This document shows positions 15,902 to 53,060 of a stretch of DNA of 64,000 bases, one piece after another. The stretch is taken from assembly GCF_054482525.1 (NCBI RefSeq), contig NZ_CM137006.1; one strand, 5' to 3'. Below the pieces are notes generated by a model. That model saw nothing but the letters and a program-made list of their open reading frames with translations, was not told the DNA's origin and did no database searches. Every line of letters starts with the position of its first letter. Position 1 is the stretch's first letter. Position numbers and translations under genes: made by a program.

Positions 15902-17296
15902 ATGCCATTTAAAAAACTCTCCCGACGCACCTTCCTGACGGCAAGCTCGGCGCTTGCCTTCCTCCATACCCCTTTCGCTCGCGCACTTCCCGACCAACAG
16001 AGCGTTAACATTAACGACTACAACCCTCACGACTGGATCGCCTCATTTAAACAAGCCTTCAGCGAAGGGCAAACAGTCGTCGTGCCTGCCGGATTGGTTT
16101 GCGACAATATCAACACCGGCATCTTCATTCCTCCTGGCAAAACGTTACACATCCTTGGAAGCCTGCGCGGCAACGGCAGAGGGCGATTTGTTTTACAGGA
16201 CGGCAGCCAGGTGACAGGGGAGGAGGGCGGCAGTATGCATAACATCACCCTGGATGTGCGTGGTTCTGACTGCACCATCAAAGGGTTGGCGATGAGCGGC
16301 TTTGGCCCGGTAACGCAGATTTATATCGGCGGCAAAAACAAACGGGTCATGCGCAACCTGACCATCGATAACTTGACCGTTAGCCACGCTAATTACGCCA
16401 TTTTACGCCAGGGATTTCATAACCAGATTATCGGTGCCAACATCACCAACTGTAAGTTCAGCGACTTACAGGGCGACGCCATTGAATGGAACGTGGCAAT
16501 TAACGACAGTGATATTTTGATTTCCGACCACATCATCGAGCGCATCAACTGTACTAACGGAAAAATCAACTGGGGCATTGGCATAGGCCTTGCGGGAAGT
16601 ACCTACAATAACAATTACCCGGAAGACCAGACAGTGAAAAATTTTGTTGTGGCGAATATCACGGGATCGGATTGTCGGCAGTTGATACATGTTGAAAATG
16701 GTAAACATTTTGTTATTCGTAATATCAAAGCCCGCAATATCACACCGGATTTCAGTAAGAAAGCAGGTATTGATAACGCCACAGTTGCTATTTATGGTTG
16801 TGACAACTTTGTGATTGATAATATTGAAATGATTAATAGTGCCGGGATGTTAATCGGCTATGGGGTAATTAAAGGCAAATATCTCTCGATACCGCAGAAT
16901 TTCCGGGTGAATAATATTCAACTGGATAATACTCATCTTGCTTATAAATTGCGCGGCATTCAAATCTCCGCCGGGAATGCTGTCTCCTTTGTGGCGCTGA
17001 CTAACATTGAGATGAAGCGTGCGTCGCTGGAGTTACACAACAAACCGCAACATCTTTTTATGCGTAATATCAATGTGATGCAGGAATCCTCAGTTGGACC
17101 CGCATTGAGCATGAACTTCGACATGCGCAAAGACGTACGAGGTGTCTTTATGGCGAAAAAAGAAACACTGCTATCTCTTGCAAATGTTCATGCGGTGAAT
17201 GAAAGAGGGCAAAGCTCTGTCGATATCGACAGGATTAATCACCATATTGTTAATGTGGAAAAGATTAACTTTAGATTGCCGGAACGGAGGGAGTAG
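15902..17296 (+). CDS. wcaM: Colanic acid biosynthesis protein WcaM (secreted, beta-helix-like)
   Basis: 464 aa; N-terminal signal/Tat-like ([13 protein letters not shown]); last gene of wca cluster by synteny. Confidence 0.88.
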
Positions 17297-34331: not shown

Positions 34332-35507
<1,176 letters not shown>

Positions 35508-50046: not shown

Positions 50047-51213
50047 TTGAAACGCCGTCTTATTATTGCTGCTTCTTTGTTCGTTTTTAACTTATCGTCT
50101 GGTTTTGCGGCGGAAAACATTCCTTTTTCACCTCAGCCTCCAGAGATTCATGCCGGGTCCTGGGTATTGATGGATTACACCACCGGACAGATCCTCACCG
50201 CGGGTAATGAGCATCAACAGCGCAATCCCGCCAGCCTGACAAAGCTGATGACGGGCTATGTCGTGGATCGCGCTATCGATAGTCATCGCATTACGCCAGA
50301 CGATATTGTCACCGTGGGGCGCGATGCGTGGGCGAAAGATAATCCAGTGTTTGTCGGTTCTTCACTGATGTTTTTGAAAGAGGGCGATCGCGTATCGGTA
50401 CGTGATTTAAGCCGTGGTTTAATTGTGGATTCCGGAAATGACGCTTGTGTTGCTCTGGCTGACTATATTGCCGGTGGGCAACGGCAGTTTGTTGAAATGA
50501 TGAACAACTATGCCGAGAAGCTGCATCTCAAGGATACGCATTTTGAAACAGTGCATGGTCTGGATGCACCTGGCCAGCATAGCTCGGCTTATGATTTAGC
50601 CGTGCTTTCTCGCGCTATCATCCACGGCGAGCCCGAGTTTTATCATATGTACAGTGAGAAAAGCCTCACCTGGAACGGTATCACCCAGCAAAACCGTAAC
50701 GGGTTATTGTGGGATAAGACCATGAATGTTGACGGCCTGAAAACGGGTCATACTTCTGGTGCCGGGTTTAATCTTATTGCTTCGGCTGTAGACGGGCAGC
50801 GTCGCCTCATTGCAGTGGTAATGGGTGCTGACAGCGCAAAAGGTCGTGAGGAAGAGGCAAGAAAATTACTGCGTTGGGGGCAACAAAACTTTACTACGGT
50901 GCAAATTTTGCACCGTGGGAAAAAGGTCGGAACGGAACGCATCTGGTATGGCGATAAAGAAAATATCGACCTGGGAACGGAACAAGAGTTCTGGATGGTG
51001 CTACCGAAAGCCGAAATTCCACATATCAAAGCCAAATATACCCTTGATGGTAAAGAACTCACCGCGCCAATTAGCGCCCATCAGCGGGTAGGGGAAATTG
51101 AACTTTACGACCGTGATAAACAGGTGGCGCACTGGCCGCTGGTTACCCTGGAATCTGTCGGGGAAGGCAGCATGTTTTCCCGCCTGAGTGATTATTTCCA
51201 CCATAAGGCCTGA
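50047..51213 (+). CDS. dacD: D-alanyl-D-alanine carboxypeptidase DacD (PBP6b)
   Basis: ORF 50041..51213 with TTG starts; SxxK (ASLTK), SGN and KTG motifs; signal peptide. Confidence 0.9.
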   Translation: MKRRLIIAASLFVFNLSSGFAAENIPFSPQPPEIHAGSWVLMDYTTGQILTAGNEHQQRNPASLTKLMTGYVVDRAIDSHRITPDDIVTVGRDAWAKDNPVFVGSSLMFLKEGDRVSVRDLSRGLIVDSGNDACVALADYIAGGQRQFVEMMNNYAEKLHLKDTHFETVHGLDAPGQHSSAYDLAVLSRAIIHGEPEFYHMYSEKSLTWNGITQQNRNGLLWDKTMNVDGLKTGHTSGAGFNLIASAVDGQRRLIAVVMGADSAKGREEEARKLLRWGQQNFTTVQILHRGKKVGTERIWYGDKENIDLGTEQEFWMVLPKAEIPHIKAKYTLDGKELTAPISAHQRVGEIELYDRDKQVAHWPLVTLESVGEGSMFSRLSDYFHHKA

Positions 51214-51299
51214 CCTTTCTTTTGCAGCAGACTGGCAGGAGTGCGAGTCTGCTCGCATAATCAACACTCATTCCTTGTGGTTTTAATATTGCAACTATA

Positions 51300-51315
51300 C
51301 TGTATATAAAAACAG
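51300..51315 (+). promoter_or_regulatory. LexA (SOS) box CTGTATATAAAAACAG upstream of sbmC
   Basis: Perfect CTGT-N8-ACAG palindrome 17 bp upstream of the sbmC ATG. Confidence 0.85.
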
Positions 51316-51331
51316 TATTAATGGAGGCGTC

Positions 51332-51802
51332 ATGAACTACGAGATTAAGCAGGAAGATAAACGTACCGTTGCAGGTTTCCATCTCGTTGGCCCGTGGGAA
51401 CAGACGGTAAAGAAAGGCTTTGAGCAGTTGATGATGTGGGTAGATAGCAAAAATATTGTGCCGAAGGAGTGGGTTGCTGTCTATTACGACAATCCAGATG
51501 AAACACCCGCCGAAAAATTACGCTGCGACACCGTCGTGACGGTACCGAATAACTTTACACTCCCCGAAAGTGAGGGCGTCATTCTGACAGAAATTTCAGG
51601 TGGTCAGTATGCGGTGGCGGTGGCTCGTGTAGTCGGTGATGATTTTGCTAAACCCTGGTATCAGTTCTTTAATAGCCTCTTGCAGGACAGTGCTTATGAA
51701 ATGTTGCCAAAGCCCTGCTTCGAGGTTTACTTGAACAATGGCGCAGAAGAGGGGTACTGGGATATCGAAATGTATGTTGCGGTGCAGCCAAAACATCACT
51801 AA
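51332..51802 (+). CDS. sbmC: DNA gyrase inhibitor SbmC (GyrI)
   Basis: 156 aa; GyrI-like small-molecule-binding domain; preceded by LexA box. Confidence 0.93.
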
Positions 51803-52001: not shown

Positions 52002-53060
52002 GTGCGTGCCGATAAGTCATTAAGCCCGTTTGAAATCCGGGTATACCGCCATTACCGCATTGTGCATGGTACTCGGGTCGCGCTGGCATTCCTGCTCACT
52101 TTTCTCATTATCCGCCTGTTTACTATCCCGGAAAGCACCTGGCCGCTGGTCACCATGGTGGTGATTATGGGGCCAATCTCGTTCTGGGGGAACGTTGTCC
52201 CTCGTGCCTTCGAACGTATTGGCGGTACGGTGTTGGGGTCGATTTTAGGTCTTATCGCTCTGCAACTGGAGTTAATCTCGTTACCGCTGATGTTAGTCTG
52301 GTGCGCGGCGGCCATGTTCCTTTGCGGTTGGCTGGCGCTGGGCAAGAAACCGTATCAAGGTTTATTGATTGGGGTGACGCTGGCAATTGTTGTGGGTTCC
52401 CCGACAGGTGAAATTGATACGGCGTTATGGCGAAGCGGCGATGTGATCCTCGGCTCTTTACTGGCAATGTTGTTTACCGGTATCTGGCCACAACGGGCGT
52501 TCATCCACTGGCGCATTCAACTGGCAAAAAGTCTGACCGAGTATAATCGGGTCTATCAATCTGCATTCTCACCGAACTTGCTCGAACGCCCGCGTCTGGA
52601 AAGCCATCTACAAAAACTCCTGACCGATGCCGTGAAAATGCGTGGGCTGATTGCGCCCGCCAGCAAAGAAACTCGTATTCCAAAATCGATATATGAAGGT
52701 ATCCAGACCATTAACCGCAATCTGGTTTGTATGCTGGAGTTGCAAATCAATGCATACTGGGCCACGCGCCCCAGCCATTTCGTGTTATTGAACGCGCAAA
52801 AACTTCGTGATACCCAGCACATGATGCAGCAAATACTGCTGAGCCTTGTTCATGCGCTGTACGAAGGTAATCCGCAGCCGGTTTTTGCCAATACGGAAAA
52901 ATTGAACGATGCTGTGGAAGAGCTGCGTCAGTTGCTGAATAACCACCATGACCTGAAGGTTGTGGAAACACCAATCTATGGTTATGTGTGGCTGAACATG
53001 GAAACGGCACATCAGCTTGAGTTGCTATCGAGTCTGATTTGCCGGGCCTTGCGCAAATAA
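52002..53060 (+). CDS. yeeA: Inner membrane protein YeeA (FUSC-like)
   Basis: 352 aa; several TM segments; apparent GTG start; synteny. Confidence 0.85.
   Translation: MRADKSLSPFEIRVYRHYRIVHGTRVALAFLLTFLIIRLFTIPESTWPLVTMVVIMGPISFWGNVVPRAFERIGGTVLGSILGLIALQLELISLPLMLVWCAAAMFLCGWLALGKKPYQGLLIGVTLAIVVGSPTGEIDTALWRSGDVILGSLLAMLFTGIWPQRAFIHWRIQLAKSLTEYNRVYQSAFSPNLLERPRLESHLQKLLTDAVKMRGLIAPASKETRIPKSIYEGIQTINRNLVCMLELQINAYWATRPSHFVLLNAQKLRDTQHMMQQILLSLVHALYEGNPQPVFANTEKLNDAVEELRQLLNNHHDLKVVETPIYGYVWLNMETAHQLELLSSLICRALRK

Follow-up and report, generated by a model that had tools for sequence, protein, structure and literature searches.

The gyrase inhibitor gene sbmC (gyrI) of Escherichia coli is said to have been first described by Baquero in 1995, and physical binding of the LexA repressor at its site in strain K-12 has reportedly been found in the work of Fernandez de Henestrosa in 2000 and of Wade in 2005. 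The gene is included among the LexA-regulated genes in a review (PMC6590174), it belongs to the UV-induced genes in two studies (PMC3009722; PMC5999292), and its induction has been followed over a time course (PMC11002266). In K-12 AZT causes a 5.7-fold induction, and in the non-cleavable lexA3 background the expression of sbmC after AZT is reduced 9.5-fold; the heterology index of its box is given as 2.8 (PMC11228462 Table 1). This means that the experiment on LexA dependence that an initial annotation of the locus studied here had proposed is already published for K-12. The orthologue of Salmonella is 3.55-fold induced and has one SOS box with an index of 6.32.

Here, we describe the corresponding site in another E. 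coli chromosome. The segment 51298-51317 is considered to be the LexA operator (SOS box) of the sbmC(-yeeA) transcription unit, with a probability of about 0.95. The initial annotation, which had read the palindrome at this position as a LexA box and deduced SOS induction of sbmC, was correct but ordinary: the palindrome is the long-known LexA operator of a classical SOS gene, its 20 bases are the same as those of the K-12 box and the dependence on cleavable LexA is supported by the lexA3 data mentioned above.

The sbmC locus

The window (the whole stretch of 64,000 nucleotides that was analysed) is E. coli chromosome, and its local gene order is sbcB (minus strand), dacD, sbmC, yeeA and tmaR. 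The operator and its immediate surroundings comprise the following features.

50047-51213, plus strand: dacD, the upstream gene (profile match, transcript data)
51298-51317, no strand given: LexA operator (SOS box), 20-mer TACTGTATATAAAAACAGTA, with the core CTGT-N8-ACAG at 51300-51315
51323-51327, plus strand: Shine-Dalgarno sequence GGAGG, 4 nt before the ATG and nearly invariant in the orthologue alignment
51332-51802, plus strand: sbmC (gyrI) coding sequence, DNA gyrase inhibitor of 156 aa (NCBIfam match, RefSeq annotation)
52002-53060, plus strand: yeeA, membrane protein of the FUSC family (list of open reading frames, annotation, K-12 transcripts)

The 16-mer CTGTATATAAAAACAG is found at exactly 51300-51315, as the initial annotation had claimed, and its context in the window reads caactatactgtatataaaaacagtattaatggaggcgtcATG. 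This 16-bp core CTGT-N8-ACAG sits within the 20-bp consensus TACTG(TA)5CAGTA that is typical of gammaproteobacterial LexA operators, and the 20-mer TACTGTATATAAAAACAGTA agrees with the LexA consensus TACTGTATATATATACAGTA in 18 of 20 positions, leaving two mismatches. Symmetry is perfect in the CTGT and ACAG arms together with the flanking TA only and does not extend to the 8-bp spacer.

The 3' edge of the box is separated from the ATG of sbmC by 14 nt. That the downstream gene codes for the gyrase inhibitor, as had been proposed, is borne out by the NCBIfam equivalog model NF007451, to which the open reading frame aligns with residues 1-156 on profile positions 1-157 (292.4 bits, cutoff 179), and by the RefSeq annotation. 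In K-12 both known start sites give transcripts that include yeeA together with sbmC, which makes control of yeeA by the same operator probable.

Around the box, 751 bases match E. coli strain 1190 at 100% identity and the majority of 5418 complete genomes at 97-98%, with dacD and sbmC annotated by RefSeq. Comparison with strain 1190 was restricted to the part from sbcB to yeeA, as the two chromosomes are not collinear over the whole window. The interval from wcaM to sbcB in the window (about 17300-48400) exceeds that of strain 1190 by 5130 bp, which means that the window belongs to another strain, in which the O-antigen region or its neighbourhood is different and longer. The lexA gene lies outside the window; of 5426 complete E. 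coli genomes, 5425 have it.

Promoters and transcription start sites

SMRT-Cappable-seq of K-12 revealed reverse-strand starts at 2081286 (transcript sbmC-yeeA) and 2081326 (sbmC-yeeA-yeeX) as well as a dacD-sbmC read-through transcript (PMC6131387 supplementary file 4); the Cappable-seq supplement of PMC4782308 has no entry near sbmC. Both positions were carried to the window via the indel-free alignment with K-12, in which the ATG of sbmC is at 2081262. The start sites thus rest on one high-throughput K-12 data set and are placed in the window strain by inference, giving the following promoter elements.

51232-51261, plus strand: distal promoter with -35 CTGGCA (51232-51237), 18-bp spacer and -10 CATAAT (51256-51261), from a promoter scan
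51268, plus strand: distal transcription start, equivalent to K-12 2081326, placed by alignment
51295-51301, plus strand: proximal -10 element CTATACT, its hexamer TATACT at 51296-51301, i.e. -12 to -7 of the start; no -35 element assigned
51308, plus strand: proximal transcription start (A), equivalent to K-12 2081286, placed by alignment

With the starts positioned in this way, the LexA box extends from -10 to +10 at the proximal promoter and from +31 to +50 at the distal one and is thus located in or next to the promoters of the gene that it regulates. The proximal -10 element overlaps the left arm of the box, the shared bases being TACT. The initial annotation had put the palindrome between the -10 region and the start codon; this holds for the distal promoter but has to be revised for the proximal one, where the box overlaps both the -10 element and the +1 position. 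The distal -10 hexamer ends 7 nt upstream of the mapped start at 51268, and both distal hexamers are kept in the loci of Escherichia, Citrobacter, Lelliottia and Kluyvera.

The extended -10 sequence CTATACT of the proximal promoter resembles the sigma-S type. Such a reading is consistent with the induction of sbmC in stationary phase and with the remark that no sigma-70 promoter is predicted for this gene (PMC5999292).

From this arrangement the following mode of action can be proposed. In undamaged cells a LexA dimer would occupy the two half-sites CTGT and ACAG. Since the operator covers -10 to +10 and shares TACT with the -10 element, the bound repressor would be expected either to keep RNA polymerase off the proximal promoter or to block formation of the open complex, and the same dimer may act as a roadblock to transcripts arriving from the distal promoter and by read-through from dacD. 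Upon DNA damage RecA filaments would stimulate the self-cleavage of LexA, so that the operator is vacated and sbmC transcribed, and the level of the gyrase inhibitor SbmC/GyrI would then rise.

The same overlap invites another interpretation, namely that the sequence is core promoter DNA only (a sigma-S or sigma-70 -10 element plus start) and resembles a LexA box incidentally. CTATACT at 51295-51301 is indeed a good -10 element, the mapped start at 51308 lies inside the box and the stationary-phase induction fits as well. A promoter, however, needs just the left end of the sequence, whereas the best-conserved part is the right arm ATACAGTA, which is found downstream of +1 and has no role in a promoter. 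Moreover, the dependence on lexA3 requires an operator. As promoter and operator roles coexist here and do not compete, we regard an exclusive promoter function as very improbable.

Conservation in Enterobacteriaceae

A scan with one genome per species gave 39 loci that encode SbmC relatives, of which 38 are enterobacterial. For 35 of the latter the best match to the LexA matrix (described below) within the locus of about 3.4 kb falls 14-22 nt before the ATG of sbmC. These boxes score 13-27 bits, the second-best matches of the same loci at most 10.7. Alignment of 36 upstream regions revealed a series of conserved blocks, starting with a CRP-like site followed by CATAAT or CATACT, then TTG, the LexA box, the Shine-Dalgarno sequence and the ATG. 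Within the box hardly any change is seen in the right arm ACAGT, in contrast to the diverging sequence around it. Some genera have a less strict left arm (TAGTG, TATGT), with the hexamer TAnnnT always retained, which fits a double duty of this arm as -10 element.

This pattern also bears on the proposal that the palindrome acts as RNA, either as a hairpin in the 5' leader controlling translation or stability or as the terminator of dacD, and not as a DNA operator. Transcripts that originate at the distal start or come from dacD could form a stem of 7 bp (-6.0 kcal/mol, z = -2.6, equalled by 6 of 200 shuffled sequences), and some changes at the outer positions are symmetric (TA..TA to CA..TG), but the latter are equally expected for the site of a dimeric protein. 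The stem is weak and lacks a T-run, and it cannot form in proximal-start transcripts because these begin within the loop. Furthermore, the degenerate left arms TAGTG and TATGT break the stem although the bases of the right arm are kept, so that conservation is specific for bases and shows no covariation. An RNA function in place of the LexA operator therefore appears highly unlikely.

Two loci deserve separate description. In Intestinirhabdus alba (L033 1315-1334) the best LexA-like site is TACTGTACAGGAATACAGTG, with 17 bits and located 166 nt upstream of sbmC; the proximal upstream region is GC-rich and unrelated, i.e. the promoter architecture differs in this genus. In Escherichia sp. MOD1-EC7003 (L038, about 1440-1500) a deletion of approximately 17 bp has taken out most of the LexA box (CAAACATACTGATTGGAGG), and the match to SbmC covers residues 1-80 only. 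Taken together this suggests a decaying sbmC gene with its operator lost.

Statistical evaluation of the box

The bare pattern CTGT-N8-ACAG occurs twice in the 64-kb window, compared to a mean of 0.56 in shuffled sequences, and 15 of 100 shuffles contained at least two copies. As it is not rarer than chance, it was dropped as a test of significance and the 20-mer together with a position weight matrix was used instead. The second copy, CTGTCGATATCGACAG at 17217-17232, was rejected as a LexA site: it lies within an open reading frame of 464 aa (15902-17296) corresponding to wcaM, has GC in its spacer, is absent from the best 12 matrix scores of the window (less than 6.5 bits) and is regarded as a chance match.

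The 20-mer TACTGTATATAAAAACAGTA is the sole site of the window with three or fewer mismatches from the consensus, and none of 100 shuffles yielded one. A symmetric weight matrix was built from 17 other E. coli LexA sites (PMC3009722 Table 4) with sbmC excluded. On this matrix the sbmC box reaches 27.0 bits, or 26.3 bits if the identical umuD site is excluded too, and it would rank second among the 17 training sites, which range from 13.4 to 27.6 bits. The runner-up in the window has 12.8-13.2 bits, and the top score over 200 first-order Markov simulations was 20.5-20.7 bits. The matrix scan suggested by the initial annotation thus singles out the predicted site (27.0 bits versus 12.8 for the next best). 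Second-tier sites at 34978, 63772 and 13337 (11-13 bits) are no better than random sequence and were discarded.

That the palindrome arose by chance in an AT-rich promoter region and lacks any binding function, as the frequency of the bare pattern might suggest, has a negligible probability, since the window holds the full 20-mer only once and no shuffle attained it, its position and specific bases are kept in 35 of 38 orthologous loci with diverging flanks, and the K-12 sequence, which is identical, has been published to confer LexA-dependent induction. For the annotation of the window the value of assigning the LexA operator is small, as it marks a classical SOS operator; it demonstrates that the scan recovers a true regulatory site at base resolution.

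CRP-S site and the hairpin behind dacD

Upstream of the box the sequence contains a further symmetric element that belongs to the conserved blocks of the alignment.

51242-51257, no strand given: CRP-S-like site TGCGA-N6-TCGCA

A CRP-S motif as well as CRP- and Sxy-dependent induction were described for sbmC, and a class I mechanism, with an expected centre at -61.5, was stated for CRP at this gene (PMC1635313). The equation of the published motif with TGCGA-N6-TCGCA at 51242-51257 is our own assignment from the sequence and should be taken as putative. The site is centred at -58.5 relative to the proximal and at -18.5 relative to the distal start. Class I activation from -61.5 therefore has no exact fit at the proximal promoter; at the distal promoter, bound CRP would overlap the core elements. 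Because sbmC responds to stationary phase and to CRP-Sxy, LexA is not its sole regulator.

Directly 3' of the dacD stop codon a stable inverted repeat, GCAGCAGACT...AGTCTGCTCGC, is found at 51223-51257 (-22.9 kcal/mol, z = -3.4). It has no T-run, overlaps the CRP-S-like site and the spacer of the distal promoter and is kept in Escherichia and Citrobacter. This hairpin could be a transcript end, a stabiliser or the mere symmetry of the CRP site.

Mobile elements at the box

The LexA box is intact in the window, and in some other strains it is occupied by the insertion sequence ISKox3, a 1316-bp element of the ISL3 family. E. coli Sanji (L042 2522-3845) and fS149a (L043 1177-2500) carry it in the centre of the sbmC LexA box, in opposite orientations and with the same 8-bp duplication, ATATAAAA; a duplication of 8 bp is also what has been reported for ISKox3. 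In coordinates of the window the target is 51304-51311 and the point of insertion lies between 51311 and 51312. The two LexA half-sites are thereby split, and the proximal promoter is separated from sbmC. Among 5426 complete E. coli genomes, queries with the junctions detected one orientation in 148 and the other in 86, which gives approximately 234 genomes or about 4%.

In Klebsiella michiganensis DSM 25444 (L037 10-1500) a matrix scan of the locus revealed no LexA box upstream of sbmC. Its homology with K. oxytoca, K. grimontii and K. spallanzanii breaks off precisely at the 3' border of the box. Upstream of sbmC and in the same orientation there is an open reading frame of 469 aa with a YADD motif (recognized by eye), which looks like a putative reverse transcriptase/maturase of a group II intron. 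Such an intron would be a second kind of mobile element at the position of the sbmC box.

A more far-reaching model, in which the single box controls three transcript classes by occlusion and roadblock and its AT-rich centre is a recurrent landing site of mobile elements, is tentative and in our view rather doubtful. If it were true, insertions in the box would uncouple a gyrase protector from SOS control in natural lineages. Disruption of the operator, for instance by ISKox3, could alter the tolerance to gyrase-targeting agents, and the disruption by ISKox3 is the only part of the result that might merit follow-up.

Comparison with known LexA operators

The closest relative of the box is that of K-12 (PMC3009722 Table 4). 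Both 20-mers are identical, and the K-12 locus has the same 14 nt between box and ATG and is likewise flanked by dacD and yeeA. The intergenic regions of 121 bp are 98% identical, without indels and with two substitutions, A for T at 51288 and T for C at 51319, both outside the box. The SbmC protein of the window (156 aa, model match 1-157) is slightly divergent from that of K-12. Judged from these sequences no functional difference between the two sbmC boxes would be expected, and by analogy the K-12 results should carry over to the window strain.

The operator of umuDC of E. coli has the same 20-mer TACTGTATATAAAAACAGTA (PMC3009722 Table 4) but differs in the promoter context and in the regulated product, which is a translesion polymerase instead of a gyrase inhibitor. 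Despite the identical 20-mers in PMC3009722, heterology indices of 2.1 for umuD and 2.8 for sbmC are listed elsewhere (PMC11228462 Table 1); these must stem from different calculations or site definitions.

A functional parallel is found in the quinolone-resistance genes qnrB, where a LexA box likewise controls a protein that protects or modulates gyrase (PMC10886550). Compared with sbmC, Qnr belongs to an unrelated family (pentapeptide repeat versus GyrI-like), is plasmid-borne and has a different promoter.
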